From: a bacterium
GTDB taxonomy: Bacteria > Myxococcota_A > Polyangia > HGW-17 > JAJRWW01
Reading direction: 5' to 3'
DNA: 64,000 nucleotides
Assembly: GCA_043825095.1 (NCBI GenBank)
Contig: JBDRSE010000156.1
Span: 125,309 to 189,308, forward strand
Part shown: one piece after another, positions 25,745-64,000 of the stretch
How the letters are laid out: every line of letters starts with the position of its first letter
How positions within the stretch are numbered: position 1 is the first letter of the stretch
The notes under the pieces: generated by a model
The model's database searches: none
What the model was told of the DNA's origin: nothing
Seen by the model: only the letters and a program-made list of their open reading frames with translations
Translations under genes and position numbers: made by a program

Positions 25745-25746
25745 CC

Positions 25747-30426: not shown

Positions 30427-30435
30427 GAGTCTTCT

Positions 30436-36440: not shown

Positions 36441-36457
36441 AGAGCAAGTTTTTAGTG

Positions 36458-46078: not shown

Positions 46079-46891
46079 ATGCATCGGAGGCAGGCAATGG
46101 GAAAGTGGAAGCCTGAGAAATGTCGCAGGAGGACGCCCAACCTCCAAAACCAGCGATCTCAATGGGCAACGCTTGCCCTGCTCGCTGTAGGTGCCTGCAT
46201 GCAGGCCGCTTGCGGTAGCGGAACGCGGCGCCGAGGCTCCGGAAACGTGCCCGCTCCGCCCCTCAGACCCTCCGCAGCCCACAGGTCCTCCGCGACGCCC
46301 AAGCCCTCCGCGACGCCCAGGCCCTCCACGACGCCCAGATCCTCGGCGGCCCACAGGCCCACTCCGACCTCCAAGCCACCTCGACCTCGGGCAGCCGACA
46401 AGGGTCTCCCTGGGTGGAATGGTTTCGGTGGGAAGCAACCATCGCGCCCTGCCGGGCGGAGCCGCGACACCGCTGTGCTCTCGGACGGCGAGCAACCCCT
46501 GGGCGCCCTGGTCGGCCACTCTGTCGGCCCCTACGGTGCAGGGAAGTACCGCAGTTCTGTTCCCAGGGTCTTCATGAGTCGTGCGAAAGTGATTGGCCCC
46601 CTGGACGCCAGCGCGATCCGCAAGGTCGCCCGGCACCACCTGGCCGAGGTCAGGCACTGCTACGTCAGCGTGGGCATTGCCGCGAACCGCAACCTGAAAG
46701 GAAGGGTCGAAGTCAGATTCACGATCAAGCCAACCGGATCGGTAGGCACATTGCGGATTGCTCGTTCCACGCTTCACCATGCCAGGACAGAGAGCTGTAT
46801 CAAGAGCGCCATGCGTCGCTGGCGCTTTCCCAAATCCGCGAGAGGCAGCACCACCGTCAATTACCCCTTCACCTTTGTGTCCAAGGGGTAG
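46079..46891 (+). CDS. Lipoprotein with Pro/Ser/Thr-rich repeat linker and C-terminal AgmX/PglI (TonB-C-like) domain
   Basis: Lipobox AVGAC; in-frame 21-bp tandem repeat (46286-46348) encoding PSATPKPSATPRPSTTPRSS; C-terminal block HHLAEVRHCY...GRVEVRFTIKPTGSV...CIKSAMRRWRFP. Confidence 0.5.
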   Translation: MHRRQAMGKWKPEKCRRRTPNLQNQRSQWATLALLAVGACMQAACGSGTRRRGSGNVPAPPLRPSAAHRSSATPKPSATPRPSTTPRSSAAHRPTPTSKPPRPRAADKGLPGWNGFGGKQPSRPAGRSRDTAVLSDGEQPLGALVGHSVGPYGAGKYRSSVPRVFMSRAKVIGPLDASAIRKVARHHLAEVRHCYVSVGIAANRNLKGRVEVRFTIKPTGSVGTLRIARSTLHHARTESCIKSAMRRWRFPKSARGSTTVNYPFTFVSKG

Positions 46892-49036: not shown

Positions 49037-49280
49037 GCGCCCGCGCCCGGCGGCGCAGAGATCATCAGATCTCCCCGCAAACCAGCCCCCAATCAGAGCC
49101 TCGATTAGTCATCCCTAACTTGTCGAATTGTTGTCCCATCATTATATAATCATGGGCTAAAACTATTATTATAGGATTATAGTTTAAACAAATAAGCAAA
49201 TATTCTTTCTGGGTGTTAAACTTCTGTTTGTTTTAGCATAATATGTTGAAATTCTAGTCCATTTCCCCGCCAACTTTTCC

Positions 49281-49309
49281 TTGACACACTGCGACGTGCT
49301 TGCTACCAA
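49281..49309 (+). promoter_or_regulatory. Sigma70-like promoter TTGACA-N17-TACCAA upstream of the dsrMKJOP operon
   Basis: ccTTGACAcactgcgacgtgcttgcTACCAAcc; nearly identical element at 55841-55869. Confidence 0.4.
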
Positions 49310-49417
49310 CCGGCTGAATATCGGTTTGATTTTTTGTTCTACGCTCAGGGCAAGCGCTCTGAGACGCCGCTTTCTCCCCGCTGTGCGAGGGTGAGCGCGG
49401 CGCGGAGGAACCGCATC

Positions 49418-49948
49418 GTGAGTCTGGAGGAGATCCTTCAGGGCAAGAGGCAGACCATCCTGCAGCGGTGGCTCGACCTCGTGCTCGAGAGCTACTCCCC
49501 TGACACCTCCAAGTTCCTCAAACGCAAGAAGGACCAGTTCGGCAACCCGGTCGGCCATGCGCTCACCCAGGGGCTCGGGGGGCTCTGCGACGCCGTGCTC
49601 GACGGGCGCGACCTGGACGAGGTGCAGGCCCTGCTCGAAGACGTGATCCGGATTCGCGCGGTGCAGGAGCTCCCGCCCTCGGTCGGCGTCGGCTTTGTCT
49701 TCGGGCTGAAGCAGGCCTTGGACGACGTGCTGCGCGACGCTCAGGTGAGCGCCGAGGAGCGGCGGGAGCTGGATCGTCGCGTGGACGCCCTCGCCCTGCG
49801 GGCCTTCGACCACTACGTGGCCTGTCGCCACAAGATCTACGAGCTGAGAATCTACGAGCTGAAGAGTCAGACCATGGACGTGCGGGAGCTGGTGGCCCGC
49901 CGCAAGGCTCAGCAGAAGGACAAACCATCGGACAACAACGGGGCGTAG
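49418..49948 (+). CDS. Hypothetical protein, first gene of the dsrMKJOP operon
   Basis: GTG start with RBS ggaggaa (49404-49410); no confidently recognised domain. Confidence 0.4.
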   Translation: MSLEEILQGKRQTILQRWLDLVLESYSPDTSKFLKRKKDQFGNPVGHALTQGLGGLCDAVLDGRDLDEVQALLEDVIRIRAVQELPPSVGVGFVFGLKQALDDVLRDAQVSAEERRELDRRVDALALRAFDHYVACRHKIYELRIYELKSQTMDVRELVARRKAQQKDKPSDNNGA

Positions 49949-49972
49949 CAGTACGCCAGGCAAGGTAGCTCC

Positions 49973-50986
49973 ATGAGTGTATTCGTTGCTTTCGTCGCAT
50001 TTCTGGTCGTCCTGGGCCTGGGATACGTCGGCGGGAAAGTGACCGGGCTGCACATGCTCTTCGGGATGGTCATCCCGTACGCGGCCTTCTTCATTTTCCT
50101 CGTCGGGGTGATCCTGCGCATCTACAAGTGGGCGCGGTCTCCGGTCCCCTTCCGGATTCCCACCACGAGTGGACAGCAGAAATCCCTGGACTGGATCAAG
50201 TCGAACAAGTTCGACAATCCGAGCTCCACCTGGGGCGTCATCGGGCGGATGCTCGCCGAGGTGCTGCTGTTCCGGTCGCTGTTTCGGAACACCAAGGCCG
50301 AGGTGCACGACGGGCCGCACGTGGCCTACGGATCGTCCAAGTGGCTCTGGATCGGCGCCATGGCGTTTCACTGGTGCTTCCTGATCATCTACCTGCGCCA
50401 CTTCCGGTTCTTCCTGGAGCCGGTCCCGCTGTTCGCGAGCTACATGGCCGACGTGGACGGCTGGCTGACCATCGGGATCCCGGCGATCTACCTCACCAAC
50501 ATCCTGATCGTGCTGGCCCTGTCCTATCTGCTGGTGCGGCGGCTGCTGAATCCCCAGGTCCGCATCATCTCGCTCCCGGCGGACTACTTCCCGCTGCTGC
50601 TCATCCTCGGGATCGTGCTCAGCGGCATGGCGATGCGGTACCTGGAGTGGTTCCGGGTGGACCTCATCAAGGTGAAGGAGTTGGCGCTGGGCCTCGTCGC
50701 CTTCAGCCCCACGGTGCCCAAGGGCATCGGGACGCCCTTCTACGTGCACCTGTTCCTGATCTCCGTGCTGCTGGTCTACTTCCCCTTCTCCAAGCTGATG
50801 CACGCCGGGGGCGTGTTCCTGAGTCCCACCCGGAACCTGGCGAACAACAACCGGTTCGTGCGGCACGTAAACCCCTGGAACCCGGCGGTGGAAGTGCACG
50901 AGTACGACCACTGGGAGCACGAGTACAAGGACAAGATCGTGGCCTGCGGCTTGCCGCTCGACAAACCGGCTGACGAGGAAGCATAA
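49973..50986 (+). CDS. dsrM: DsrM-type membrane cytochrome b (NarI/HdrE family)
   Basis: Five TM helices with conserved His; NarI-like. Confidence 0.75.
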   Translation: MSVFVAFVAFLVVLGLGYVGGKVTGLHMLFGMVIPYAAFFIFLVGVILRIYKWARSPVPFRIPTTSGQQKSLDWIKSNKFDNPSSTWGVIGRMLAEVLLFRSLFRNTKAEVHDGPHVAYGSSKWLWIGAMAFHWCFLIIYLRHFRFFLEPVPLFASYMADVDGWLTIGIPAIYLTNILIVLALSYLLVRRLLNPQVRIISLPADYFPLLLILGIVLSGMAMRYLEWFRVDLIKVKELALGLVAFSPTVPKGIGTPFYVHLFLISVLLVYFPFSKLMHAGGVFLSPTRNLANNNRFVRHVNPWNPAVEVHEYDHWEHEYKDKIVACGLPLDKPADEEA

Positions 50987-50989
50987 GCA

Positions 50990-52663
50990 ATGTCATCTGG
51001 ATTCCCCAAGAATTTCCCGGCGCCCGAAGATCTGGCGGCGGTGGATTTGGAAAAAAAGCACCTCAAGAACTGGATGGACCCGTCCGTCAACTTCGAGGGT
51101 CGGCGCGGCACCTGGTCCTACCCGGCCGCCGCCAAGAACCTCAGGTACCTGGGTCTGCCGAACCCGCGGGAGTGGTCCCCCACCGACGACGACTGGAAGC
51201 TGCCCGACAGGTGGCAAGACACCGTGCTCGACGGCATGGCCGACCGGCTCGAGCGGTTCCGCTCCTTCCAGGTGATGATGGACATCTGCGTGCGCTGCGG
51301 CGCCTGCGCGGACAAGTGCCACTTCTTCATCGGCTCCGGCGACCCGAAGAACATGCCGGTGCTCCGGGCGGAGCTGCTCCGGTCCATCTACCGGCGACAC
51401 TTCACCACCACGGGCAAGATCCTGAAGTCCCTGGCGGGTGGGCGGGAGCTCACCGCCGAGGTGATGAAGGAGTGGTACTACTACTTCTTCCAGTGCACCG
51501 AGTGCCGCCGCTGCTCGGTGTTCTGTCCCTACGGCATCGACACCGCCGAGGTGACGATGATCGCCCGAGAGCTGATGAACCTCATCGGGCTGAACATCAA
51601 CTGGGTGCTCGAGCCGGCGGCCAACTGCCAGCGCACGGGCAACCACCTCGGCATCGAGCCCCACGCCTTCGTGGACAACATCGACTTCTTCTTGGACGAG
51701 ATCGAGGAGAACACCGGGTTTCGCCCCGAGGTGCCCATCAACAAAAAGGGCGCCGACGTGCTCTTCGTCACGCCTTCGGGCGACATCTTTGCCGATCCGG
51801 CGATCTACACCCTCATGGGCTACTTCCTGCTCTTCGACTTCCTGAAAAAGGAGCACGGGTTCAACTGGACCATGAGCGCCTACGCGTCCGAGGGCGGCAA
51901 CTTCGGCCTGTTCACCTCCAACGAGATGATCAAGCGGCTCAACGCCAAGATGTACCGCGAGGCGGACCGGCTCGGCGTGAAGTGGATCCTGGGCGGCGAG
52001 TGTGGCCACATGTGGCGGGTGGTCAACCAGTACATGGACACCATGAACGGCCCGGCCCCGTCGAAGATGATCGTCCCGAAGTCGCCCTTCACGCCGACCA
52101 TCTTCGAAAACGCCGCGTCCACGAAGATGGTGCACATCACCGAGTTCACCGCGGACCTGATCAAGCACAACATGCTGCCGCTGGACCCGTCCCGGAACGA
52201 CCGGTACCGGGTCACCTTCCACGACTCCTGTAACCCGGCCCGCGGCATGGGCCTGTTCGAGGAGCCGCGGTACATCCTGCGGAACGTCTGCAACAACTAC
52301 TGGGACATGCCGGAGTCCACCATCCGCGAGAACACCTTCTGCTGCGGGGGCGGCGCCGGCCTGGGCAACGACGAGAACTTCGAGATGCGCATGCGGGGTG
52401 GCCTGCCCCGGGGCAACGCCGTCAAGTACGTGCGGGACAAGCACGGCGTGAACCTGCTCACCTGCGTCTGCGCCATCGACAAGGCCACGCTGGTGCCGGT
52501 GTGCGACTACTGGGCCGAGGGCGTGGGCGTGGCCGGGATCCACGAGCTGGTGGCCAACGCCCTGGTGTTCAAGAAGGGCGAAGAGCGGAAGCTGAACCTG
52601 CGCGGCGAGCCCCTCAAGGACGAGGAAGAGGCAGCAGCAGAGACGGAGGGCAATGATGCCTGA
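50990..52663 (+). CDS. dsrK: DsrK-type iron-sulfur protein (HdrD family, CCG domain)
   Basis: CVRCGACADKCHF and CTECRRCSVFCPYGI 4Fe-4S motifs, C-terminal CCGGGAG CCG domain. Confidence 0.8.
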   Translation: MSSGFPKNFPAPEDLAAVDLEKKHLKNWMDPSVNFEGRRGTWSYPAAAKNLRYLGLPNPREWSPTDDDWKLPDRWQDTVLDGMADRLERFRSFQVMMDICVRCGACADKCHFFIGSGDPKNMPVLRAELLRSIYRRHFTTTGKILKSLAGGRELTAEVMKEWYYYFFQCTECRRCSVFCPYGIDTAEVTMIARELMNLIGLNINWVLEPAANCQRTGNHLGIEPHAFVDNIDFFLDEIEENTGFRPEVPINKKGADVLFVTPSGDIFADPAIYTLMGYFLLFDFLKKEHGFNWTMSAYASEGGNFGLFTSNEMIKRLNAKMYREADRLGVKWILGGECGHMWRVVNQYMDTMNGPAPSKMIVPKSPFTPTIFENAASTKMVHITEFTADLIKHNMLPLDPSRNDRYRVTFHDSCNPARGMGLFEEPRYILRNVCNNYWDMPESTIRENTFCCGGGAGLGNDENFEMRMRGGLPRGNAVKYVRDKHGVNLLTCVCAIDKATLVPVCDYWAEGVGVAGIHELVANALVFKKGEERKLNLRGEPLKDEEEAAAETEGNDA

Positions 52664-53234
52664 AGACAAGAAGTCGGAGACGGCGGAGAAGCCGGAGACG
52701 GCGGAGAAGACCGAGAAGGCGAAGAAGGCGGCGGAGTACAAGCCGCACGTCTACAAGTATCCGCCCACGGAGCAGGCCAGGTCCGACATGCCCATGGTCT
52801 TTTTCGGGCTGCTGGTCTTCGTCGGGCTGATGCTGGCGGCCACCGTTGGCAATCGGGTCCTCCACAAGTTCAAGCAAAAGCCCGTGCTGGAGCTGCCCAA
52901 GCACGAGAAGAACTGCGTCCGGGACGTCCAGTTCATGCGCGAGAACCACATGAAGCTGCTCAACGACTGGCGGGACCAGGTGGTGCGCACGGGCGTCCGG
53001 TTCGAGCAGATCCCCCGGCGGGACGACCACGGCAAGGTCCTCAAGGACGGCCAAGGCAAGATCGTGCACCAGAAGATCGAGCGGAGCCTGACCAAGACCT
53101 GCCTGCGGTGCCACGACAACCCCCGGGCGTTCTGCGACCGGTGTCACGAGTACGCCGGCGTCACGAAGAAGGGCGGCCTGCTGGGTTGTTTTTCCTGCCA
53201 CATCCAGCCGAACCCCAAACCCGCGCGGAGATAA
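52653..53234 (+). CDS. dsrJ: DsrJ-type triheme cytochrome c
   Basis: Three CxxCH motifs (CLRCH, CDRCH, CFSCH); N-terminal TM/signal; RBS gacggaggg. Confidence 0.7.
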   Translation: MMPEDKKSETAEKPETAEKTEKAKKAAEYKPHVYKYPPTEQARSDMPMVFFGLLVFVGLMLAATVGNRVLHKFKQKPVLELPKHEKNCVRDVQFMRENHMKLLNDWRDQVVRTGVRFEQIPRRDDHGKVLKDGQGKIVHQKIERSLTKTCLRCHDNPRAFCDRCHEYAGVTKKGGLLGCFSCHIQPNPKPARR

Positions 53235-53237
53235 CCC

Positions 53238-54005
53238 ATGGACAGTGGAAAGAGAAATTTCCTGAAGATCGCCGGGCTGACCGCGGTGGGCGGGTACGTG
53301 GGCGTCAGGGCCGTGGGGGCCATCGCCGCGGGGCCCCAGAAGGCCAAGCAGACGCTGGCGCTCGTCATCGACACGCGCAAGTGCAAGGGCGACTGCCCGG
53401 ACTGCATCACGGCGTGCCACCGCGAGCACAACGTGCCCGAGCGGCACAACCCCAATTTCAAGCCCCCGGGGCCGTCTGCCAAGCAGGCCATCAAGTGGAT
53501 CTGGGTGGACACCTTTGCCGGCGCCTTCCACGAGCAGATCCACCAGCGTACGGGCAGGCGCAAGGACCCCTTGCTCGTGCTGTGCAACCACTGCGACGAT
53601 CCTCCCTGCACCCGGGTCTGTCCCACCAAGGCGACCTGGAAGCGGGAGCAGGACGGCATCATCACCATCGACATGCACCGCTGCATCGGCTGCCGGTTCT
53701 GCATGGCGGCGTGCCCCTACGGCTCCCGGTCCTTCAACTTCCACGACCCCCGCAAGTCGCTCAAGAGCGTCACGCCGGGGTTCCCCACCCGCACCCTCGG
53801 GGTGGTGGAGAAGTGCAACTTCTGCGAGGAGCGGCTCGAACGGGGTCTGCAGCCGGCCTGCGTGGAAGCCTGTGAGAAGAAGGCGATGTCCTTCGGTGAT
53901 CTGAACGACGACAAGTCGCCGGCTTCGGTGGCCCTCAAGGGCAACTTCACCATAACCCGCAAACCGCACCTCGGGACCGGTCCCGAGGTGTACTACATTC
54001 TGTGA
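53238..54005 (+). CDS. dsrO: DsrO-type periplasmic 4x[4Fe-4S] ferredoxin (Tat-like signal)
   Basis: KRNFLKIAGLTAVGG Tat-like signal; four Cys clusters typical of PsrB/DsrO. Confidence 0.75.
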   Translation: MDSGKRNFLKIAGLTAVGGYVGVRAVGAIAAGPQKAKQTLALVIDTRKCKGDCPDCITACHREHNVPERHNPNFKPPGPSAKQAIKWIWVDTFAGAFHEQIHQRTGRRKDPLLVLCNHCDDPPCTRVCPTKATWKREQDGIITIDMHRCIGCRFCMAACPYGSRSFNFHDPRKSLKSVTPGFPTRTLGVVEKCNFCEERLERGLQPACVEACEKKAMSFGDLNDDKSPASVALKGNFTITRKPHLGTGPEVYYIL

Positions 54006-54012
54006 GGCGCCA

Positions 54013-55164
54013 ATGCTCGAGAAAGCGTTAACCGGTAGCAAGCGGTATTGGGCCTGGATCTTCCTGCTGCTCTGCCTGTGCGGCATGGGCGGCGGCCTGT
54101 GGCTGTATCAGCTCAACGAAGGGCTGGGCGTCACGGGCCTGAACCGGGACGTGTCCTGGGGCCTGTACATCGCCCAGTTCACCTTCCTGGTCGGAGTGGC
54201 CGCCTCGGCGGTGATGGTGGTCCTGCCCTACTACCTCCACGACTACAAGGAGTTCGGGAAGATCACCATTCTGGGTGAGTTCCTGGCCATCCCGGCCTGC
54301 ATCATGTGCATGGCGTTCATCGTCGTGGACATGGGCCGGCCCGACCGCGTCGTGTACATGTTCATGCACGCCTCGCCCAACTCGGTCATGTTCTGGGACA
54401 CCGTGGTGCTCAGCGGCTACCTGGGCCTGAACATCGTGATCGGCTGGACCATGCTCACCTCGGAGCGCAAGGGCGTGCCCGCGCCGAAGTGGGTCAAGCC
54501 CCTGATTTACCTGTCCATCCCCTGGGCCGTCTCGATCCACACGGTGACGGCGTTCCTGTATCAGGGCCTGCCCGGCCGGGGCTTCTGGATGACCGCCATC
54601 ATGGCGCCGCGCTTCCTGGCCTCGGCCTTTGCCGCGGGTCCGTCCTTTTTGATCCTGATGTGTCTGCTGGTGCGGCGCTTCACCAAGTTCGATCCGGGTG
54701 ACAACGCCCTGCGCAAGCTCGGCCAGATCGTGACCTACGCCATGTTCATCAGCGTGTTCTTCTTCCTGATGGAGGTGTTCACGACCTACTACTCGAACAT
54801 CCCGGAGCACAAGCACCACTTCTACTACCTGTTCCGGGCCGGCCCCTGGTGGCTGCTCGCCGCGATGTGGGGCTTTGCCGCGCTGGCGGTGATCGGGCTG
54901 GTGATCATGGTCAATCCCCGCACCCGCAACCACATCCCCACCCTCGCGGTGGGCGCGGGCTGCGTTTTCGCGGCCAGCTGGTTGGAGAAGGGCCTCGGGC
55001 TCGTCATCGGCGGGCTCACGCCGAACCCCATGGGAAAATACACGGTCTACACGCCCACCCTCGTGGAGATCGGCATCGCCGTGGCCGTGTGGTCCTTTGG
55101 GATGCTCATCCTGACCGTGCTGTACAAGGTCGCCACCGGCGTCAAGGAAGAGCAGGCCGCGTAG
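54013..55164 (+). CDS. dsrP: DsrP-type NrfD/PsrC-family integral membrane protein
   Basis: ~10 TM helices, NrfD-family. Confidence 0.75.
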   Translation: MLEKALTGSKRYWAWIFLLLCLCGMGGGLWLYQLNEGLGVTGLNRDVSWGLYIAQFTFLVGVAASAVMVVLPYYLHDYKEFGKITILGEFLAIPACIMCMAFIVVDMGRPDRVVYMFMHASPNSVMFWDTVVLSGYLGLNIVIGWTMLTSERKGVPAPKWVKPLIYLSIPWAVSIHTVTAFLYQGLPGRGFWMTAIMAPRFLASAFAAGPSFLILMCLLVRRFTKFDPGDNALRKLGQIVTYAMFISVFFFLMEVFTTYYSNIPEHKHHFYYLFRAGPWWLLAAMWGFAALAVIGLVIMVNPRTRNHIPTLAVGAGCVFAASWLEKGLGLVIGGLTPNPMGKYTVYTPTLVEIGIAVAVWSFGMLILTVLYKVATGVKEEQAA

Positions 55165-55840
55165 CCTGGGCGCTCAAAACCACCCGCTCCCTCCTCTCTC
55201 TCTGTTTCAGTCTGTCCAGGGCGCCGCCGTCGATGCGGTGGATCGTCCAGTCGACCAGGGGCTTGGCGGGCTCGCGTAGAAGTTGATGGCCGGCTGGTTC
55301 CAGTCGAGCACCGCGAGCTCCAAAAACGGATCGGATCCACACAACTCGGGACCTGTGAGATCCCCTGGAACGCGTGGGAGCACCGGTGGCGGATCCGCGG
55401 GGGCCCCGCCCGATGACCCGGGCTGACCTACGGATGGGCGCGAGAGATGATCCTTTCGAATCACTGAGCTTGCGGAGCAATAGCTTCGGGAATCTGACTA
55501 TGAGAAACAGGTGTTTATCACGATGCAATCATCGGAATATTTGCGCATGGCAGATGGTAGACATCCCTGGAAAACACCGATGCCGGAATTGGCTGAGCAG
55601 GCCCCTCTCAGGCCCGATCCTGGCCGCTGTTCCCAGGTCGTGAGTTGCAGATTTTCACTGAGAATGGAACGCAAAAAGCGTGGTTTCGAGCCTCGATTTT
55701 CAGGGCACAATCCTGCGATTTTCCAGGTGATTGCCAGGATCTTCGTCAGTGGCTGGGCGCAAAGAAAACACCTGTTTTTATAGAGTATTTTCTCTGTTAG
55801 GCGCGACTCATTAAACTGCTCTTCGGAGAGCAAGTTTCTC

Positions 55841-55869
55841 TTGACACGCTGCATTGCGCTTGTTACCAA
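55841..55869 (+). promoter_or_regulatory. Sigma70-like promoter TTGACA-N17-TACCAA upstream of dsrC
   Basis: tcTTGACAcgctgcattgcgcttgtTACCAAgc; same architecture as 49281-49309. Confidence 0.4.
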
Positions 55870-56013
55870 GCAGTACACAAGTTGAAAAGACAATCGGTTT
55901 GCCCGTGAAGACAGTCACGACCTTTCGGTGCGGCGCGACTGGGTGGTAGCGCGGCGGACTAGAATTCAGCACCGGGTGGAAAAACGTTTCGGAGAATTCT
56001 GGAGGCCTTTCAC

Positions 56014-56331
56014 ATGCCTATGTTCGAGCAGGGTGACGTCAAGATCGAAGTCGATGAAGATGGATTCATCGTCAACCCCGACGATTGGAGCGAAGCAGTT
56101 GCAGCCGCGCTCGCCGGTGGCGAGGGCGTCGACGAGCTCACCGAAGAGCACTGGAAGGTGATGAACTACCTCCGTGACTACTATCAGAAGTTCGGTGTGG
56201 CTCCTATGATCCGCAAGCTCTGTAAGGAAACCGGTTTCCCGCTCAAGAGGATCTATGATCTGTTCCCCAGCGGGCCTGCGAAGGGTGCCTGCAAGCTGGC
56301 TGGACTTCCCAAGCCCACCGGTTGCGTCTGA
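56014..56331 (+). CDS. dsrC: DsrC (TusE/DsrC/DsvC family) with both C-terminal arm cysteines
   Basis: ...KGACKLAGLPKPTGCV C-terminus; RBS ctggagg. Confidence 0.85.
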   Translation: MPMFEQGDVKIEVDEDGFIVNPDDWSEAVAAALAGGEGVDELTEEHWKVMNYLRDYYQKFGVAPMIRKLCKETGFPLKRIYDLFPSGPAKGACKLAGLPKPTGCV

Positions 56332-56515
56332 TCCGGAGACCCGGTTGTACTCCTTCGCGGCGATCGGGCGACCGCATCGCCATCACCGTCGCTTTTCCCC
56401 TTTGCCCGTAACGAAACGCTGCGGCGGCGATTTGTCGCGCCGAGGGGCGTGGTGCGCGTGGAGTGTCACCTGAGCCAAGTTATCAACCACTGGGAGTCCC
56501 CCTAAGGAGTAGCCT

Positions 56516-57751
56516 GTGATGAGCCAAGCCGAGAGCAAACCGATTCTGGTTGTTGGCGGCGGAGTGAGCGGCATCAGCACCGCGCTGGAGCTGAGCGAGT
56601 TCGGCCGGCCGGTGATTCTCGTCGAGAAGGAGCCCTTTCTCGGCGGGAAGGTGGCCGCCTTCAACAAGTACTTTCCCAAGCTCTGTCCGCCCACCTGCGG
56701 GCTGGAGATCAACTACAAGCGTCTCCGGAAAAACGCGAATGTCACCGTGCACACCATGGCGCAGGTGACGCAGGTCAAAGGCGAGGCGGGCAGCTACGAG
56801 GTCACGATCGAGGTGCAGCCGCGCTTCGTAAACGACCGCTGCACCGCCTGCGGCGACTGCGCCGAGGCGTGCGCGGCGGAGCGCGAGGACACCTTCAATC
56901 AGGGCCTCGGCAAGACCAAGGCGATCTACACCGCGGGGAACATGGCGTACCCGAACCGGTTCGTGCTGGACCGGGCCGCCTGCGCCGAGGGGGATCTGGC
57001 CAAGATCAAGGACGCGTGCAAGTTCGGCGCGGTGGACCTAGACCAGACTGCGCAGACCCTGACCGAGCAGGTGGGGGCCATCGTCTGGGCCACGGGGTGG
57101 AGCTCCTACGACGTGTCCAAGGTGGAGTACCTCGGCTTCGGCAGGCTCCCCGACGTGATCACGAACCTGATGATGGAGCGGCTGGCCGACAACAGCGGGC
57201 CCACGGGAGGGAAGCTGTTACGGCCGTCGGACGGCAAGGAGGTCGAGAGCGTGGCCTTCGTGCAGTGCGCCGGCTCCCGGGACGTCAACCACCTGGCCTA
57301 TTGCTCCGGTGTCTGCTGCCTGGCCTCGCTCAAGCAGATCAACTATGTGCGGCAGGCGGCTCCGAACGCGAAGATCTACATGTTCCACATCGACGTGCGG
57401 GCCGGCAAGTACGAGGAGTTCTACACTCGGGTGTGTGGCGAACAGAACGTGGAGATCATCAAGGGCAAGGTCGCGGGCATCTTCCCCGAGGGCGACAAGC
57501 TGCGGCTGCAGGTGGAGAACATCGAGTCCGGGGAGTCGCTCAAGGTCGACGTGGACCTGGCGGTGCTGGCCACCGGCATCGTGCCCAACACGGCCGAGCT
57601 GCCTTTTGAGGGCACCAGGGACGACTACGGCTTTCTGATGCTCGACCCGACGAGCGGGATGATCCCCACCGGGTGCGTGCGTCGGCCGGCCGACGTCTCC
57701 ACCGTGGTGCAGGACGCAACCGGAGCCGCCATGCGGGCTCTCAGCCTTTGA
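56516..57751 (+). CDS. qmoA: QmoA-like FAD flavoprotein (HdrA family)
   Basis: FAD-binding ILVVGGGVSGISTALEL; RBS aaggagt; possible ATG at 56519. Confidence 0.75.
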   Translation: MMSQAESKPILVVGGGVSGISTALELSEFGRPVILVEKEPFLGGKVAAFNKYFPKLCPPTCGLEINYKRLRKNANVTVHTMAQVTQVKGEAGSYEVTIEVQPRFVNDRCTACGDCAEACAAEREDTFNQGLGKTKAIYTAGNMAYPNRFVLDRAACAEGDLAKIKDACKFGAVDLDQTAQTLTEQVGAIVWATGWSSYDVSKVEYLGFGRLPDVITNLMMERLADNSGPTGGKLLRPSDGKEVESVAFVQCAGSRDVNHLAYCSGVCCLASLKQINYVRQAAPNAKIYMFHIDVRAGKYEEFYTRVCGEQNVEIIKGKVAGIFPEGDKLRLQVENIESGESLKVDVDLAVLATGIVPNTAELPFEGTRDDYGFLMLDPTSGMIPTGCVRRPADVSTVVQDATGAAMRALSL

Positions 57752-57765
57752 GTAGAGGTACCCCA

Positions 57766-59961
57766 ATGGACAAAAAGCTAGGAGTGTACATCTGCACCGG
57801 ATGCGGCATCGGCGACGCCCTCGACATCGAGGCGGTGGCCAAGATCGCGACCAGCGATGGCAAGGCCGCGCTCTGTAAAAACCATGAATACCTGTGCGGC
57901 GAGGAGGGCCGCGCGCTCATCCAGGGGGACTTAGACAGCGAGTCCCTGGACGTGGTCGCCGTGGCTGCGTGCTCCATGCGCGAGAAGCAGCGGGAGTTCC
58001 AGTTCGGCAACGCCTGGGTGGAGCGGATCAACTTCCGTGAGCACCTGGCCTGGTGTCACGAGCCCAACGACGAGGACACCCAGTGGCTGGCCGAGGACTA
58101 CCTGCGGATGCTCGGCGCCCGGGTGGCCGTGACGTCGAAACCGGAGCCGCACGTCGAGGAGATGACGGATCGGCTGCTCGTGGTCGGCGGCGGAGTCAGC
58201 GGCCTGAATGCGGCCCTTTTCGCGGCCGAGGCGGGCCGCGAGGTGGTGCTGGTGGAGAAGGAGGACGCCCTGGGCGGCTTCCTCAGGCGCGTGCACAAGA
58301 AGTTTCCGGTCTCGCCACCCTACGAGGAACTCGAGGACAACGACATCGCGGACACCGTGGCCGCCGTGGAGGGCCACGGCAAGATCACGGTCTACAAGTC
58401 TTCCACTCTGGGCAAAGTCAACGGAGCTCCGGGCCGCTTCGAGGTGACCATCGAGGGCGCCGGCGCCAGCGAAACGGTGGGCTCCATCGTCGTGGCGGCC
58501 GGGTTCCAGCCCTACGACGTGTCCAAGGTCGCCAACCTGGGCTACGGCACCGTCAAGGACGTCGTGACCTCGGTAGAGCTGGAGGACATGGCCCGGGAGG
58601 GCAAGCTCACCCGGCCCTCGGACGACGGCGACCTCGAGACCGTGGTGTTCATCCAGTGCGCCGGCTCCCGGGACGCGGATCACCTGCCCTACTGCTCCAC
58701 GACCTGCTGCGCCGTGTCGCTCAAGCAGACGCAGTACATCCGGGACGCCAACGACGAGGCCAAGACCTACGTCCTGTACAAGGACATCCGGACCCCGGGA
58801 CAGTGGGAGACTTTCTATCAGAGCGTGCAGAAGAAGGGCACGCTCTTCGTGAAGGCCGAGATCACGTCCGTGGAGGCCGGGGACGACGGCGGCGCGGTGG
58901 TCCTGGCCCGCGATCTGCTGCTGGGCGAGGACATCGAGATCGAGTGCGACCTGGTGGTCCTGGCCGTGGGCCAGCAGACCACGGTGCTGGATCAGAAGGT
59001 CCTGAACCTGGGATATCGGCAGGGCCCCGAGCTGCCGGCGCTGGGCGAGAAGGTCCAGCTCACCGAGGGCGAGGGCGAAGCTGCGCAGGAGGTGGCCCGG
59101 GTGGACCAGCCCACGGGCGGCTTCCCCAATTCCCACTTCATCTGCTTCCCCTACGAGAGTCGGCGCACGGGCATCTACGCCGCCGGCTCGGTGCGTCAGC
59201 CCATGGACACCGCCTCCGCGGCGGACGACGCGGCGGGCGCCGCCTTCCAGGCCCTCAAGTCAGTGAAGCTGGGCGGTGAGGGCAAAGCCGTGCACCCGCG
59301 GGTGGGCGACGTCTCGTGGCCCGACTTCGCGCTGCAGCGGTGCACCCAGTGCAAGCGCTGCACCGAGGAGTGCCCCTTCGGCGCGCTGGACGAGGACGAG
59401 AAGGGCACGCCGAAGCCGAACCCGACCCGCTGTCGGCGGTGCGGCGTCTGCATGGGCGCGTGCCCGGAGCGGATCGTCAACTTTGCCGACTACTCCGTGC
59501 AGTCCATCAACTCGATGATCAAGGGCATCAACGTGCCCGAGGAGTGGGAGGAGAAGCCCTGCGTGCTGTGCCTGATGTGCGAGAACGACGCCTACCCGGC
59601 GCTGGACATCGTGGGCACCCAGCGGCTGAAGTACTCACCCTTCGTGCGCTTCGTCCAGATGCGCTGCCTCGGCGGGCTGAACCTCCAGTGGATCGCCGAC
59701 TCCATGGCCAAGGGCTTCGACGGCGTGCTGCTGCTGGGGTGCAAGGCCGGGGACGACTACCAGTGCCACTTCATCCAGGGGAGCGAGCTGGCCCAGATCC
59801 GGCTCAGCAAGGTGGCCGAGACCCTGGATCGGCTGATGCTGGAGTCGGACCGCGTGGAGTACCACGAGGTGGAGATTGACAACTACGGGGCCATGCCGAA
59901 GATCATCGATGACTTCTTGGCGAAGCTCGAGGCGCTCGGTCCCAACCCGTTCAAGGATTAG
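57766..59961 (+). CDS. qmoB: QmoB-like flavoprotein (HdrA family with 2x[4Fe-4S] and C-terminal MvhD-like domain)
   Basis: LLVVGGGVSGLNAA FAD site; CTQCKRCTEECPFG and CRRCGVCMGACPER clusters; C-terminal MRCLGGLNLQWIADSMAKGFDGVLLLGC MvhD-like. Confidence 0.75.
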   Translation: MDKKLGVYICTGCGIGDALDIEAVAKIATSDGKAALCKNHEYLCGEEGRALIQGDLDSESLDVVAVAACSMREKQREFQFGNAWVERINFREHLAWCHEPNDEDTQWLAEDYLRMLGARVAVTSKPEPHVEEMTDRLLVVGGGVSGLNAALFAAEAGREVVLVEKEDALGGFLRRVHKKFPVSPPYEELEDNDIADTVAAVEGHGKITVYKSSTLGKVNGAPGRFEVTIEGAGASETVGSIVVAAGFQPYDVSKVANLGYGTVKDVVTSVELEDMAREGKLTRPSDDGDLETVVFIQCAGSRDADHLPYCSTTCCAVSLKQTQYIRDANDEAKTYVLYKDIRTPGQWETFYQSVQKKGTLFVKAEITSVEAGDDGGAVVLARDLLLGEDIEIECDLVVLAVGQQTTVLDQKVLNLGYRQGPELPALGEKVQLTEGEGEAAQEVARVDQPTGGFPNSHFICFPYESRRTGIYAAGSVRQPMDTASAADDAAGAAFQALKSVKLGGEGKAVHPRVGDVSWPDFALQRCTQCKRCTEECPFGALDEDEKGTPKPNPTRCRRCGVCMGACPERIVNFADYSVQSINSMIKGINVPEEWEEKPCVLCLMCENDAYPALDIVGTQRLKYSPFVRFVQMRCLGGLNLQWIADSMAKGFDGVLLLGCKAGDDYQCHFIQGSELAQIRLSKVAETLDRLMLESDRVEYHEVEIDNYGAMPKIIDDFLAKLEALGPNPFKD

Positions 59962-59995
59962 GATTCCCTAACCCTAGGAACCATCGAGGTCGAAC

Positions 59996-61162
59996 ATGTC
60001 GGATGCACAGAATCCGGAACCCGAACTAGGCGCAGCCATCGCGGAGATGGGCGGTGAGACCCTCTACTGGTGCATGCAGTGTGGACTCTGCACGGGGGGC
60101 TGCCCCTGGCGATTGACCGACGGCGAGATCAACCGGGAGTTCAACGCCCGCAAGCTCCAGCACATGGGTCAGCTGGGGCTGGAGGGCTATGAGTCGGACA
60201 ACAACCTCTTCGCGTGCACCACCTGCGGCCTCTGCGTCAAGCGGTGCCCGCGGGAGGTGAACGCCATCGACAACATCCGGTCCATGCGGATGATGCTGGC
60301 CGAGGGGGGCGGGGTTCCACAGAACTACCGCTCCATCGTGGGCAGCCTGACCGACAACGGCAACCCGTGGATGGAGGGCCGTGAGAAGCGGAAGTCCTGG
60401 ATCAAGGACCTGGACGTGCCCACCTTCACCGAGGACACGGAGTACCTGCTCTTCGTCTGCTGCACGTCGTGCTACGACGCGCGCTCTCAGCACATCGCCC
60501 GGGCCATCGCCACGCTGCTCAACAAGGCCGGAGTGAGCTGGGGCATTCTCGGCGAGCAGGAGAGCTGCTGCGGCGAGTCGATCCGCAAGATCGGCCAGGA
60601 GGAGCTCTTCGGAACCCTCGCCGAGGCCAACATCGAGCTGTTCAATGGCAGGGGCGTCAAGAAGATCATCGTCACCTCGCCCCACTGCATGTTCACGTTC
60701 TTGAACGAGTACCCCGAGCGGGGCGGCGAGTTCCAGGTGCAGCACTACACCCAGCTCCTGGCGGACCTGATTCGCGAAGGCAAGCTGAAGCTGGACAAGG
60801 ACCTCGGCGTAGTGGTCGCCTTCCACGACCCGTGCTACCTGGGGCGACACTGCGACGTCTACCAGGACCCCAGGGAGGTCCTCGCGGCGCTCCCGGGCAC
60901 GCAGGTGATGGAGCTCACGCGGAATCGCGAGAGCAGCATCTGCTGTGGCGGCGGCGGCGGGCGGGTGTGGATGGAGACCCCTCCGGGAGAGCGTTTCGGT
61001 GACCTGCGGGTCAATGACGCCTTGGCCCACGAGGCGTCGGTGCTGGTCACTTCCTGTCCTTACTGCACGATCATGATGGAGGCGTCGGTGCTCGGGCTGG
61101 ACAAAGAGGAGGAGATCAAGGTCAAGGACGTAGCTGAGCTCGTGCTGGACGCCCTCGCGTAG
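59996..61162 (+). CDS. HdrD-like (HdrC+HdrB fusion) iron-sulfur protein with two CCG domains, soluble
   Basis: CMQCGLCTGGCPW / CTTCGLCVKRCPR 4Fe-4S motifs; two CCG motifs (ESCCGES, SICCGGGG); no TM helices. Confidence 0.7.
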   Translation: MSDAQNPEPELGAAIAEMGGETLYWCMQCGLCTGGCPWRLTDGEINREFNARKLQHMGQLGLEGYESDNNLFACTTCGLCVKRCPREVNAIDNIRSMRMMLAEGGGVPQNYRSIVGSLTDNGNPWMEGREKRKSWIKDLDVPTFTEDTEYLLFVCCTSCYDARSQHIARAIATLLNKAGVSWGILGEQESCCGESIRKIGQEELFGTLAEANIELFNGRGVKKIIVTSPHCMFTFLNEYPERGGEFQVQHYTQLLADLIREGKLKLDKDLGVVVAFHDPCYLGRHCDVYQDPREVLAALPGTQVMELTRNRESSICCGGGGGRVWMETPPGERFGDLRVNDALAHEASVLVTSCPYCTIMMEASVLGLDKEEEIKVKDVAELVLDALA

Positions 61163-61192
61163 CGCGGCGGCGCAGACGCACCGCTGCACCGC

Positions 61193-61858
61193 ATGTCGAA
61201 ACCGCTGTATCCCGTCGCCCTGCGACTTCGAGACAAACCCGTGCTGGTGGTGGGCGGCGGCCCTGTGGCCGCACGCAAGGTCGCACGCCTGCTCGACTGC
61301 GGCGCCCGCGTCACCCTGGTCGCCCTCGCTGCTGCCCAGGAGCTGGAGGACGCAGCCGTCCGAGGGACGATCGTCTGGCATCGGCGGCCCTTCACTCCCA
61401 CGGACGTGGAGGGCGCGGCGCTCGTGTTCACCGCCACCGGCGACGAGGCCGTGGATGCGTCCGTCGCCGCGGCTGCCCAGGGCCTGTCCATCTGGGTCAA
61501 CGTCGCCGATTCCGCGGCGGCCGGGGACGTGCAGCTGCCCGCGCTCCTGCGGGCCGGTGCCGTGACGGTGGCGGTCTCCACCGCCGGGGCCGCGCCCGGG
61601 TTTGCGGCCCGGCTCGCGCGGGAGCTGGAGCCGCGGCTGTCGCATGTGGGCCCCTACGTGGAGCTGCTCGGCGCGCTGCGGCAGGATCTGCGGCAGCGAT
61701 TCCCGGACGCGCCGGCCCGGCGGCAGCGTGCCTTTGCGGCGGCGCTCGACTGCGCTGCCGCCCGCGAGCACGCTGAGCAGGGTCGCCTGGACGAGGCCGG
61801 ACTGGCGCTGCGATCGGCCGCGGAGGCTGCGCTGGACGCGGAAGGGGACCAAGGATGA
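61193..61858 (+). CDS. sirC: Precorrin-2 dehydrogenase / sirohydrochlorin ferrochelatase (SirC/CysG N-terminal-like)
   Basis: Rossmann LVVGGGPVAARKVARLL; CysG N-domain-like. Confidence 0.65.
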   Translation: MSKPLYPVALRLRDKPVLVVGGGPVAARKVARLLDCGARVTLVALAAAQELEDAAVRGTIVWHRRPFTPTDVEGAALVFTATGDEAVDASVAAAAQGLSIWVNVADSAAAGDVQLPALLRAGAVTVAVSTAGAAPGFAARLARELEPRLSHVGPYVELLGALRQDLRQRFPDAPARRQRAFAAALDCAAAREHAEQGRLDEAGLALRSAAEAALDAEGDQG

Positions 61859-61864
61859 AGCCTC

Positions 61865-63454
61865 ATGCGAGCAGGTGACCACGTGCCCGCCGCAGGGGAC
61901 GGGCTGTTTAACGGCGCGTCCACCGCCGCGGACGAGTCGGCAGGCGGTCCGGGGAAGATCTACCTCGTCGGTGCGGGCCCCGGGGACCCGGATCTGATCA
62001 CCGTCCGCGGCGCCCAGCTCTGCCAGAGCTGCGATGCGTTGGTCTACGACAGCCTGGTCCCCGCCGAGCTCGTGGCGAACAGCCCGGCCCTGCGCAAAAT
62101 CTACGTGGGCAAGACCGAGGGCGGCCACACCATGACCCAGGACGAGATCACCCGGCTGTTGGTGGATCTGGCCCACGAGCCCGGGGGACCGCGTCGAATC
62201 GTCAGGCTGAAAGGTGGCGATCCCTACGTCTTCGGCCGCGGGGGCGAGGAGGCGCTGGCCTGCCGCGAGGCAGGCGTTCCGCTGGAGGTCGTGCCCGGCG
62301 TGACCGCCGGGGTGGCCGCGCCGGCCTATGCCGGCGTGCCGGTGACGCACCGACGCACCAGCCGCGGGGTCATCTTTTTTACGGGCCATCTGGCGCACGG
62401 AAACCTGGATCACCTGCCCTGGGCCCAGCTGGCGACCAGCGGATTCACCCTGGTGAGCTACATGGGGGTGTCGACCCTGGAGCAGATCGCCGCCCGTCTC
62501 GTGGAGGCGGGTTTGGCTCCCGACACTCCGGCCATGGTCGTTCAGGAGGGCACCACCCCGGGCCAGCGAAGCGTGTGCGCGCCTCTTTCGCAGCTCGCGG
62601 AGCGCGCCCGGGCGGTTGGCATTCGGCCGCCCGCCGTGACCGTGATCGGGCAGGTGGTTTCCCTTGCCGAGACGCTCGGGCCCCAGCGCCCTCGGCCGCT
62701 GGCCGGCAAGACCGTGGTGCTGCTCAAGGCCGAAGAGAGCAGCTACTCCGAGCTGGCGCCGCTGCGCCGGGCGGGAGCGCGGGTCATCGAGGTTTCGGTG
62801 GTGCGCTGCGTGCAGAGCCCCCATCCCGAGGAAGTGGAGACCGGGCTCTTGGCCATGCGTGGGGAGCATGTGGTGTTCTTCCGATCCGCCGCTGCCGCGC
62901 GGTTCTTCGGCGACGCCTGGCGAAAGCTGTCCGGGCGACCGCAGCCGCGGCTGATTGCGGGCAGCCCCACCGTGCGGGATGCGCTGCTGCGCCAGGGATT
63001 CGACGTGGTCTACACCGAGCAAGGGCGCGTCGGGGCGTTGGAGACGCTGCGCGGGGCCGCGGTGGCGCCGGGGACCACGGTCTGGATGCCTCGGAGCACG
63101 GGCGCAGGGACCGAGACCCCGCGCGAGCTCGAGGCTGCCGGCTTCAGTCCGCGCCTCCTCCGCGTGTACGAAACCAAGCACGTCCCAGTGCCCAACGACG
63201 TCCGCTCCATCCTCTCCTCAGGGCGCGTGGACGCAGTGTTGTTCCTGTCTGGAAGCTGCGCTCGCGCGGCGGCAGTGGCCGCTCCTCACCTCGGGCGGCA
63301 GCAGGACCGGCCCGTGCTGTTCGGCGCCGTGGGGCCCCTCACCGCGCGCGCTGCGAGCGAGGTAGGGATCCACTGTGAGGTCGTACCGGATCTACCGCGT
63401 GTTGCGGATCTGGTGGACGCGGTCCTCACCCAAATGATCCCCGGATCCCGGTAG
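61865..63454 (+). CDS. cobA-hemD: Uroporphyrinogen-III C-methyltransferase fused to uroporphyrinogen-III synthase (CobA/HemD)
   Basis: IYLVGAGPGDPDLITVRG, VVRLKGGDPYVFGRGGEE SAM-MTase motifs; C-terminal ~250 aa HemD-like. Confidence 0.75.
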   Translation: MRAGDHVPAAGDGLFNGASTAADESAGGPGKIYLVGAGPGDPDLITVRGAQLCQSCDALVYDSLVPAELVANSPALRKIYVGKTEGGHTMTQDEITRLLVDLAHEPGGPRRIVRLKGGDPYVFGRGGEEALACREAGVPLEVVPGVTAGVAAPAYAGVPVTHRRTSRGVIFFTGHLAHGNLDHLPWAQLATSGFTLVSYMGVSTLEQIAARLVEAGLAPDTPAMVVQEGTTPGQRSVCAPLSQLAERARAVGIRPPAVTVIGQVVSLAETLGPQRPRPLAGKTVVLLKAEESSYSELAPLRRAGARVIEVSVVRCVQSPHPEEVETGLLAMRGEHVVFFRSAAAARFFGDAWRKLSGRPQPRLIAGSPTVRDALLRQGFDVVYTEQGRVGALETLRGAAVAPGTTVWMPRSTGAGTETPRELEAAGFSPRLLRVYETKHVPVPNDVRSILSSGRVDAVLFLSGSCARAAAVAAPHLGRQQDRPVLFGAVGPLTARAASEVGIHCEVVPDLPRVADLVDAVLTQMIPGSR

Positions 63455-63689
63455 CGCCTGCCCGCTATTTCCGGCGTAGTTAATGAGTACTCAATAACGA
63501 ATGGTTAGTGGGGGCTCATTATCGAGCCCGAATCCGTGCCTTTCCGAGGGGAATTGAAGCACTTTTACCATTGGGACTGACAATGGATATAATGCAATTA
63601 TTTCAGAAGGTTAAATAGCAGTCAAACTGGATGAGATTAGGCCGGAACTACCACTATCGGAAAATCGAAAATCAGCGTGACGAATATGC

Positions 63690-63718
63690 TTGACAGCCCC
63701 CCGGCGACGGGGTAGCAC
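63690..63718 (+). promoter_or_regulatory. Sigma70-like promoter TTGACA-N17-TAGCAC upstream of aprB (long 5' UTR)
   Basis: gcTTGACAgccccccggcgacggggTAGCACaa in a low-GC leader ~190 nt before ATG 63907. Confidence 0.35.
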
Positions 63719-63906
63719 AACCCGGTATAAACAAGGAGAAGTGTGTCGGATATTCCGTGTTTTTCCCTCCCAGGGATCCTGGAAAATCCGGTACCAAGAA
63801 ATCGAGTTTTGAGCACCTTTTTTGTTCAATTCGGAGTTCTGGACGGGAGACCGTCCACCAGATCCGCCCGGAGAAGCGAAAGCCTCCGGGCCACAGGAGG
63901 GCATTC

Positions 63907-64000
63907 ATGCCGAGCTATGTGATCACTGAGAAATGTGATGGATGTAAAGGCCAGGACAAGACTGCCTGCATGTACATCTGTCCCAACGACCTGATGCTGC
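63907..64000 (+). CDS. aprB: Adenylylsulfate reductase beta subunit (N-terminal fragment, continues past window)
   Basis: MPSYVITEKCDGCKGQDKTACMYICPNDLM matches the characteristic AprB N-terminus; RBS acaggaggg. Confidence 0.75.
   Translation, partial: MPSYVITEKCDGCKGQDKTACMYICPNDLML

Follow-up and report, generated by a model that had tools for sequence, protein, structure and literature searches.

Gene sets for the dissimilatory reduction of sulfate have been published for uncultured members of the Myxococcota (bioRxiv 10.1101/2021.07.06.451402; PMC10591310; PMC11484514; bioRxiv 10.64898/2026.07.10.737566). Family JAFGIB01 from Zodletone spring encodes a full Sat/AprAB/QmoABC/DsrAB/DsrC/DsrMKJOP set, with DsrAB closest to that of Acidobacteria (Murphy et al. 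2021, bioRxiv 10.1101/2021.07.06.451402). Diao et al. (2023) described Myxococcota metagenome-assembled genomes (MAGs) with full Dsr sets, dsrD and type-2 dsrL, and a Myxococcota_B MAG with the gene order dsrCTMKJOP (PMC10591310). A 2026 preprint reported reductive DsrAB in 6 of 90 Danish Myxococcota MAGs (Blaeremorphaceae, UBA5297 and UBA6930; bioRxiv 10.64898/2026.07.10.737566), and both novel Myxococcota MAGs or single-amplified genomes of the Äspö dataset paper encode sulfate/sulfite reduction (PMC11484514). Here we analyze a 64,000-nucleotide stretch (the window) of contig JBDRSE010000156.1 (GenBank assembly GCA_043825095.1), which carries on its plus strand, from 49.3 kb to its end, a single co-oriented run of sulfur-metabolism genes. 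An earlier sequence-only reading had described this run as a complete dissimilatory sulfur-metabolism island in a myxobacterial genome and, on the grounds that no cultured myxobacteria have this metabolism, had proposed a novel lineage or horizontal gain. The annotation proved largely right. The inference of novelty was wrong and outdated, as uncultured Myxococcota with complete Sat/Apr/Qmo/Dsr sets had already been published; the locus is a further member of this described group. Taken together, the data make it probable that we are dealing with a native, reductive-type dissimilatory sulfur respiration cluster of an uncultured, Polyangia-related (Myxococcota) bacterium from deep anoxic groundwater.

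The cluster shares with the published Myxococcota sets its phylum-level host and the genes aprBA, qmo, dsrAB, dsrC and dsrMKJOP; it also has a dsrL and a putative dsrD, and most Myxococcota MAGs were reported with dsrD and type-2 dsrL. Contigs 100% identical to parts of the window were found in SRR26275509, the metagenome of borehole SA2600A of the Äspö Hard Rock Laboratory (345 m below sea level), which was used in the Äspö study (PMC11484514). In GenBank, proteins of this MAG on the 226,808-nucleotide contig already are named as DsrMKJOP subunits (MFH2007363, DsrM; MFH2007364, DsrK; MFH2007367, DsrP). Among the labeled relatives, a Myxococcales MAG (L045) has dsrL-dsrB-dsrA, aprBA and qmoAB-hdrD together. 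The proteins of L045 and of two further Myxococcales/Myxococcota MAGs (L062 and L072) are only 48 to 68% identical to those described here, and the lineage therefore is a different one; the GC content is 65% in the window compared with 52 to 57% in these MAGs. Unlike JAFGIB01, for which QmoABC was reported (Murphy et al. 2021), the present locus has a soluble HdrD-like protein in place of QmoC, and unlike the uncultured Myxococcota sets it appears to have DsrD fused to DsrB.

The closest sequence relatives are the clusters of peatland Acidobacteria and of Zixibacteria (identities of 70 to 78% for DsrC, 65 to 70% for DsrK, 63 to 64% for DsrA and 54 to 58% for DsrL). The DsrB core was 72 to 75% identical to DsrB of Zixibacteria, Acidobacteriota, Calditrichota and Ignavibacteria (nearest-neighbor identities). 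The accessory set (a putative DsrD, DsrN, DsrL, DsrT and sirohaem genes) also is shared. Hausmann et al. (2018) described acidobacterial clusters of the form dsrAB-dsrD-dsrN-dsrL-dsrC and dsrT-dsrMKJOP, with the sirohaem genes dsrV and dsrW near dsr (PMC6018796); SirC and CobA of the present locus are of the dsrV and dsrW types. The host phylum differs, however, the DsrD of these relatives is a separate gene of 82 to 83 amino acids (aa), the Acidobacteria were reported with qmoABC (PMC6018796) rather than QmoAB-HdrD, and the gene order is not the same, being here dsrT-MKJOP, dsrC, qmoAB-hdrD, sirC, cobA/hemD, aprBA, dsrAB, dsrN, dsrL. In the absence of QmoC and the presence of a soluble, CCG-domain Hdr-type protein after qmoB, the locus resembles the Desulfosporosinus/Desulfotomaculum type. 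Gram-positive sulfate reducers carry hdrBC in place of QmoC. In the Desulfosporosinus loci the trio likewise lies upstream of aprB, with 51 to 55% identity; unlike there, two sirohaem genes stand between hdrD and aprB here, and the host belongs to another phylum.

DsrB extension and direction of the pathway

The window ends within aprB. Genes beyond it were read from separately assembled public contigs, which were reached by exact protein match. A contig from SRR26275509 (L001) was 100% identical to positions 59580 to 64000, and a contig of 20,094 nucleotides from SRR10569040 (L082/L086) was 99.94% identical over positions 53967 to 64000 (10,034 nucleotides). These completed aprB to 145 aa, and the full protein was recognized by TIGR02060 (198 bits, cut-off of 136). 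Past the window, L082/L086 encoded aprB, aprA, an 88-aa zinc-ribbon gene, dsrA, dsrB, dsrN, dsrL and transposase-like fragments, in that order. Hence aprA and dsrAB were found just where the sequence-only reading had expected them, but sat, which it had expected as well, was not on the extension.

The DsrB encoded on this extension exceeded its closest relatives in length by approximately 105 residues. The additional sequence consists of an acidic linker (~25 residues) and a C-terminal domain of 80 to 86 residues; conserved forms of the two occur in a small clade of DsrB proteins of 463 to 468 aa. An AlphaFold2 model of the domain predicted a winged helix made of three helices and a beta-hairpin (predicted local distance difference test score of 80), and Foldseek matched the model to winged-helix proteins, including DsrD (1wq2) and Z-alpha domains. 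The domain was 55 to 58% identical (E values of 1e-28 to 1e-31) to the 82- to 83-aa genes found directly after dsrB in an Acidobacteriota locus (L083) and a Zixibacteria locus (L084), where they sit between dsrB and dsrN. In peatland Acidobacteria, dsrD reportedly is paired with dsrN (PMC6018796), and the small gene in L083 holds the same position. Because of the winged-helix model, the identity to the L083 and L084 genes and the pairing with dsrN, the extension is read as a putative DsrB-DsrD fusion. A phmmer search of the tail against the PDB gave no DsrD match. A BLASTP comparison with a Desulfovibrio vulgaris DsrD sequence (E = 0.036 in a three-sequence database) was counted as no evidence.

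DsrD is regarded as a marker of reductive Dsr, and a DsrB-DsrD fusion is known in Bilophila (PMC8794893). As appears to be the case here, Bilophila wadsworthia has a DsrD-type winged helix at the C terminus of DsrB (PMC8794893). Unlike that protein, the one described here would carry the divergent DsrD type of Acidobacteria and Zixibacteria, joined by the acidic linker. The two fusions probably are independent, because the domain belongs to a divergent type that is missed by the Pfam DsrD model. About a dozen DsrB-DsrD proteins with 77 to 90% identity were found, and some of the contigs that encode them are as long as 213 kb. Marker-gene surveys that use the Pfam DsrD model would wrongly call this clade dsrD-less.

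The DsrD-like domain, DsrT and the nearest DsrAB relatives indicate, at the level of sequence comparison, a cluster of the reductive type. DsrA gave 529 to 542 bits with the DsrA proteins of Desulfovibrio, Desulfomicrobium and Archaeoglobus. DsrC gave 126 to 130 bits with its counterparts from Desulfomicrobium, Desulfovibrio and Pyrobaculum, compared with 97 bits for Allochromatium DsrC. None of the best 80 QmoB loci came from a classical sulfur oxidizer, and the interval from 49.3 kb to the end of L086 (~35 kb) showed no dsrEFH. The sequence-only reading had suggested weighing dsrEFH and dsrL against dsrD; the DsrD-like domain and the lack of dsrEFH in this interval favor reduction, while the presence of dsrL does not.

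From this gene content and what is established about these protein families we infer the following electron routes. AprBA would reduce adenosine 5'-phosphosulfate (APS) to sulfite with electrons from QmoAB and the soluble HdrD-like protein, a thiol/disulfide-type Fe-S protein, and not from a membrane-bound QmoC. DsrAB, in which DsrB would bear the fused DsrD-like activator domain, would reduce sulfite onto DsrC to give the DsrC trisulfide. At the membrane, DsrMKJOP would then reduce the trisulfide with quinol-derived electrons, so that sulfide would be released and energy conserved. The sirohaem cofactor would be made and amidated by SirC, CobA-HemD and DsrN, and electrons from NAD(P)H may be fed in by DsrL.

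Several observations weigh against a reductive sulfur-respiring cluster so composed. The Foldseek likeness of the DsrB tail is to winged helices in general, and the tail was matched neither by the Pfam DsrD model nor in a comparison of a seven-sequence profile with the PDB. DsrJ scored marginally below the cut-off of its model (96.2 bits, with a cut-off of 100 for NF038038). The cluster contains dsrL. DsrL also is found in sulfur oxidizers. Finally, no sat was found among the open reading frames (ORFs) scanned in the window or the genes of the ~10-kb extension (~80 kb in all). Sulfate activation therefore is unproven, and the respiration of only sulfite or other sulfur compounds is possible; for the same reason, the term "complete" slightly overstated a gene set that otherwise was largely borne out.

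The best-surviving alternative is that the same enzymes serve mainly to oxidize sulfide or sulfur, running in reverse, or to disproportionate sulfur compounds, as has been proposed for Desulfurivibrio and discussed for DsrL-bearing Acidobacteria. The position of dsrL directly downstream of dsrN and its 54 to 58% identity to the Acidobacteriota and Zixibacteria proteins are in keeping with such a mode, which Hausmann et al. explicitly left possible for gene sets of this kind (PMC6018796). Diao et al. noted type-2 DsrL in organisms of both metabolic types and in the Myxococcota MAGs that they analyzed, and they reported oxidative DsrAB in some Myxococcota (PMC10591310). Set against this are the DsrD-like domain and dsrT, the lack of dsrEFH in the ~35-kb cluster, and the closest relatives of DsrA, DsrB and DsrC, which are of the reductive type. 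In addition, the sole identified source sample is deep groundwater from 345 m below sea level, with no evident oxidant in these data. We regard a mainly reversed or disproportionating pathway as unlikely, and the reductive direction as the one to which the gene content points.

Gene complement from dsrT to dsrL

The features of the cluster are collected in Table 1. Bit scores refer to NCBIfam equivalog models with curated cut-offs, complemented by Pfam. All of the genes named by the sequence-only reading were present on the plus strand, about where it had placed them. The five DsrMKJOP genes are adjacent and were recognized by subunit-specific equivalog models, four of which were clearly satisfied, with DsrJ marginal. 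DsrM has five hydrophobic segments and DsrP has seven. DsrK contains two CxxCxxCxxxC motifs and one CCG motif, and DsrJ contains three CxxCH motifs (residues 150, 161 and 179) and one hydrophobic segment (a membrane anchor helix). The possibility that these proteins are Hmc/Tmc paralogs, which had been raised as a potential refutation, was examined with the corresponding models. The Hmc, Tmc and Qrc models all remained far under their own cut-offs for the DsrMKJOP proteins, and the Tmc and Hmc models reached only 141 to 155 bits with DsrK, ruling out that identity. DsrO had been described as a twin-arginine translocation (Tat) ferredoxin. Its identity as DsrO held, but its N terminus (MDSGKRNFLKIAGL) has a Tat-like motif, GKRNFLK, with KR in place of the twin arginine.

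The gene directly upstream of dsrM, previously listed as hypothetical, is, judged by its sequence and position, the conserved dsrT-position gene. The order dsrC-dsrT-dsrM, with 32 to 43% identity, also was observed in Bryobacterales (L053), in Zixibacteria (L063) and in the loci L073 and L078, and this is the position of dsrT (PMC6018796; PMC10591310), as in the dsrCTMKJOP cluster of the Myxococcota_B MAG (PMC10591310).

Between dsrP and dsrC lies a long spacer whose ORFs had no family match and which had no Rfam match; two ORFs in it (55374 to 55643 and 55511 to 55783) had no family matches and probably are not genes. The spacer probably holds the dsrC promoter and leader. The C terminus of DsrC, ...ACKLAGLPKPTGCV before the stop, was taken directly from the DNA (CKLAGLPKPTGCV; ...GACKLAGLPKPTGCV before the stop). 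Its C-terminal arm has both conserved cysteines, the penultimate residue and the cysteine ten residues upstream, in agreement with the diagnostic tail noted earlier. TusE was considered as an alternative identity and rejected, as the sulfurtransferase chain 7syb gave only 43 bits, compared with 126 to 130 bits for DsrC proteins, and both C-terminal cysteines are present.

QmoA and QmoB were assigned by domain content and context; the profile library held no dedicated model for either. The QmoA-like protein was 48 to 55% identical to qmoA products encoded beside aprBA in Desulfosporosinus, Acidobacteria and Myxococcales loci. The QmoB-like protein, whose start was taken from an independent gene call on L082, was ~50 to 54% identical to QmoB at the best 80 genome loci, and no relative above ~54% identity was present among these best 80 loci of the species-representative genome set, from which the lineage therefore may be absent. 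aprB begins 3.9 kb downstream of the qmo genes on the same strand. The third gene of the series encodes an HdrD-like protein with two 4Fe-4S motifs and two CCG motifs, and no hydrophobic or membrane segment was predicted in it. It scored 33.7 bits with the qmoC model, the cut-off of which is 300, and therefore is not QmoC. The two CCG domains, the lack of a hydrophobic segment and the low qmoC score thus define a QmoAB-Hdr variant and not a canonical QmoABC. The HdrD-like protein was 64 to 65% identical to the product of the gene after qmoB in L045, L062 and L072, and 53 to 55% identical to that of Desulfosporosinus. Domain content and the neighborhood to aprBA therefore support the series of QmoA, QmoB and HdrD-like protein that had been proposed from the sequence alone.

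QmoA/QmoB/HdrD-like trios also were seen in Desulfomonilaceae/Syntrophaceae genomes (L004, L007, L008, L015, L016, L022 and others; HdrD identity of 58 to 61%), with no aprB in the retrieved flanks (up to 10 kb per side). Such trios may encode HdrA-type paralogs unconnected to APS reduction.

The sirohaem-synthesis genes and the start of aprB, both predicted earlier, were confirmed by TIGR01470, TIGR01469 and TIGR02060. In the CobA-HemD fusion, TIGR01469 spans residues 30 to 268 and the HemD models span residues 281 to 522. The start of aprB was corrected from 63908 to 63907. The region ahead of it had no ORF family match and no Rfam match, and for this region we infer a promoter or leader role. 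On L082, a terminator-like hairpin and T-run precede the 88-aa zinc-ribbon gene. On L086 (14640 to 15966), transposase-like fragments (e.g., ...RWHIENTAFNQWVKHWNLSHVYRHS...) directly follow dsrL at the end of the Logan contig; these may represent a repeated insertion sequence element bordering the cluster.

Table 1. Features of the sulfur-metabolism cluster, its downstream extension and two host-related genes (window positions unless a contig is named; bit scores are followed by the model cut-off where given)
Feature	Position	Strand	Description and evidence
DsrT-like	49334-49948	+	RsbRD_N domain, Pfam PF14361, 67 bits; directly upstream of dsrM
DsrM	49973-50986	+	Membrane haem-b subunit, NarI-like; NF038037, 504.5 bits vs 300
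DsrK	50990-52663	+	Cytoplasmic Fe-S/CCG catalytic subunit; NF045796, 703 bits vs 400
DsrJ	52653-53234	+	Periplasmic trihaem cytochrome c; NF038038, 96.2 bits
DsrO	53238-54005	+	Putative periplasmic Fe-S protein; NF045797, 275 bits vs 200
DsrP	54013-55164	+	NrfD-type membrane subunit; NF045798, 460 bits vs 350; Pfam NrfD
Long non-coding spacer	55165-56013	.	849 bp, between dsrP and dsrC
DsrC	56014-56331	+	PF04358, 133 bits; TIGR03342, 122 bits
QmoA-like HdrA-type flavoprotein	56519-57751	+	Matches FAD domain of HdrA2, 328 bits
QmoB-like flavoprotein	57766-59961	+	HdrA-type domain, 2x[4Fe-4S], C-terminal MvhD/FlpD; Pfam FlpD 123 bits, Fer4, FAD
Soluble HdrD-like protein (fused HdrC/HdrB-type)	59996-61162	+	388 aa; two CCG domains, 103 bits; Fer4 dicluster
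SirC, precorrin-2 dehydrogenase, DsrV-like	61241-61858	+	TIGR01470 (CysG N-terminal domain), 127 bits vs 62
CobA (uroporphyrinogen-III methyltransferase, DsrW-like) fused to HemD	61865-63454	+	TIGR01469, 284 bits vs 185
Putative aprBA leader/promoter region	63455-63906	.	452 bp, AT-richer; sigma-70-like site at 63564-63593
aprB 5' end	63907-64000	+	First 31 codons; translation MPSYVITEKCDGCKG...
aprA	L082, adjoining aprB		625 aa; TIGR02061, 912 bits vs 642
Zinc-ribbon gene	L082 12370-12636, ~2.3 kb past window end		88 aa, between aprA and dsrA; weak Ogr/Delta-like similarity, 24.8 bits
dsrA	L082		TIGR02064, 573 bits vs 393
dsrB	L082		465 aa; TIGR02066, 492 bits vs 342
dsrN	L082/L086		CobB-type amidase
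dsrL	L082/L086, directly downstream of dsrN		562-aa GltD-type Fe-S flavoprotein
AgmX/PglI C-terminal domain protein	46079-46891		NF033768, 93.7 bits vs 40
FHA-GGDEF protein	32410-33312		Confirmed

Host and origin of the cluster

The left 49 kb of the window encode the housekeeping genes for RNase PH, pdxA, uvrA, lexA, uvrC, ffh, nuoBCDGHI, hisA-hisIE and hisD. Among the best 120 matches of UvrA, all named proteins were from Polyangia, Myxococcales, Myxococcota or Deltaproteobacteria at ~65% identity, and closer relatives without a taxon label were 74 to 86% identical. Ffh was 81% identical to a protein of a MAG classified as "Polyangia bacterium." These best matches point to a host related to Polyangia/Myxococcota. 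The Myxococcota affinity stated by the sequence-only reading thus was upheld, and the AgmX/PglI-like domain and FHA-GGDEF protein that it had cited both were confirmed (Table 1).

It is improbable that the host lies outside the Myxococcota, in a deep-branching lineage of its own with which the phylum has no more than "delta-proteobacterial" features in common. UvrA is just ~65% identical to that of named Myxococcota, and TonB-like AgmX/PglI domains and FHA-GGDEF also occur in other phyla; but the taxonomy of the named UvrA matches and the Ffh of the Polyangia-classified MAG argue for a Myxococcota host.

The GC, GC3, codon and tetranucleotide usage of the cluster fit the host. Tetranucleotide usage, suggested earlier as a check for chimeric assembly, correlated between the two halves with r = 0.93, compared with 0.90 to 0.95 for left-half controls, without any hint of chimerism; for codon usage (relative synonymous codon usage), r was 0.992, with a control of 0.995. 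This host-like composition argues against a recently acquired mobile genomic island, which we consider very improbable. The transposase-like fragments after dsrL would suit such an island, and dsrAB has been inferred to have entered the Myxococcota laterally more than once (PMC10591310). However, at the left border we noticed neither a tRNA or integrase gene nor direct repeats, and a clade of relatives has the same genes, with DsrB-DsrD and HdrD-like proteins that are 77 to 90% identical. The nearest foreign homologs are only 50 to 78% identical, so that any transfer would be ancient. Recent transfer therefore is unsupported, and the dsr genes may plausibly have been gained laterally long ago.

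The last alternative, that sulfur genes of another organism were joined to a myxobacterial contig by misassembly or misbinning, could draw on the fact that Dsr, Apr and Qmo are nearest to Acidobacteriota, Zixibacteria and Desulfobacterota-type organisms while the housekeeping genes resemble those of Myxococcota, but it is extremely improbable given that the compositional statistics of the halves are near the left-half controls, that a contig of SRR26275509 (L087), which was assembled separately, is 100% identical over positions 48760 to 51307, across the hutU-dsrT junction (~49.1 kb), and that the same kind of cluster is present in other Myxococcales-labeled MAGs. Since the halves match in composition and L087 spans the junction, a chimera of the left and right halves, which had been named as a possible refutation, is excluded for practical purposes.

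Other features of the window were noted. A 1,408-aa ORF on the plus strand (36749 to 40975) has a strong coding signal (GC3 of 0.92) and no Pfam or NCBIfam match. The complex I genes nuoB-C-D-G-H-I (25124 to 31209, plus strand) include a short NuoG (525 aa), and nuoG follows nuoD with neither nuoE nor nuoF in between. This pattern suggests a complex I variant that lacks the NADH-oxidizing module. A 413-aa protein (33334 to 34575, plus strand) combines HisA (residues 2 to 219) and HisIE (residues 216 to 409), an unusual fusion. The only Rfam matches in the window were two tRNA clusters on the minus strand, with three genes (2018 to 2289) and two genes (36368 to 36531). The Cys-rich repeat lipoproteins of the sequence-only reading probably correspond to two proteins that are likely to be secreted or located at the surface: one has acidic double-disulfide repeats (260 to 1903, plus strand; NF033662, 93 bits), and the other, of 865 aa, has FG-GAP/ASPIC repeats (22180 to 24777, minus strand). 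The ffh ORF (18991 to 21141, minus strand) leaves room for ~176 codons ahead of the conserved Ffh core, an extension that would overlap a strongly coding plus-strand ORF (20888 to 22126); the true ffh start probably is internal.

Implications for sulfur-respiring Myxococcota

What is new here is modest, namely, a putative DsrB-DsrD fusion of the divergent type and the gene order with QmoAB-HdrD in this clade. Neither the fusion nor the HdrD replacement alters the current understanding of the pathway, although the soluble HdrD-like replacement of QmoC in a Gram-negative lineage is of specialist interest. A broader proposal, which we put forward tentatively and hold to be somewhat doubtful, is that of a distinct Polyangia-related clade, recurrent in subsurface and other metagenomes, that respires sulfate or sulfite with DsrD permanently tethered to DsrB and with APS reduction uncoupled from the quinone pool via QmoAB-HdrD. 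If this is true, DsrC or another thiol/disulfide couple possibly is tied to APS reduction by the soluble HdrD-like partner, and the clade would offer a natural system in which to study, in a Gram-negative host, DsrD activation and a Qmo function that does not depend on quinones. The locus adds one more well-assembled example (on a 226.8-kb contig) to the non-classical sulfate/sulfite reducers, and it lends support to the idea that anaerobic sulfur respirers of the deep terrestrial biosphere are to be found among the Myxococcota outside soil.

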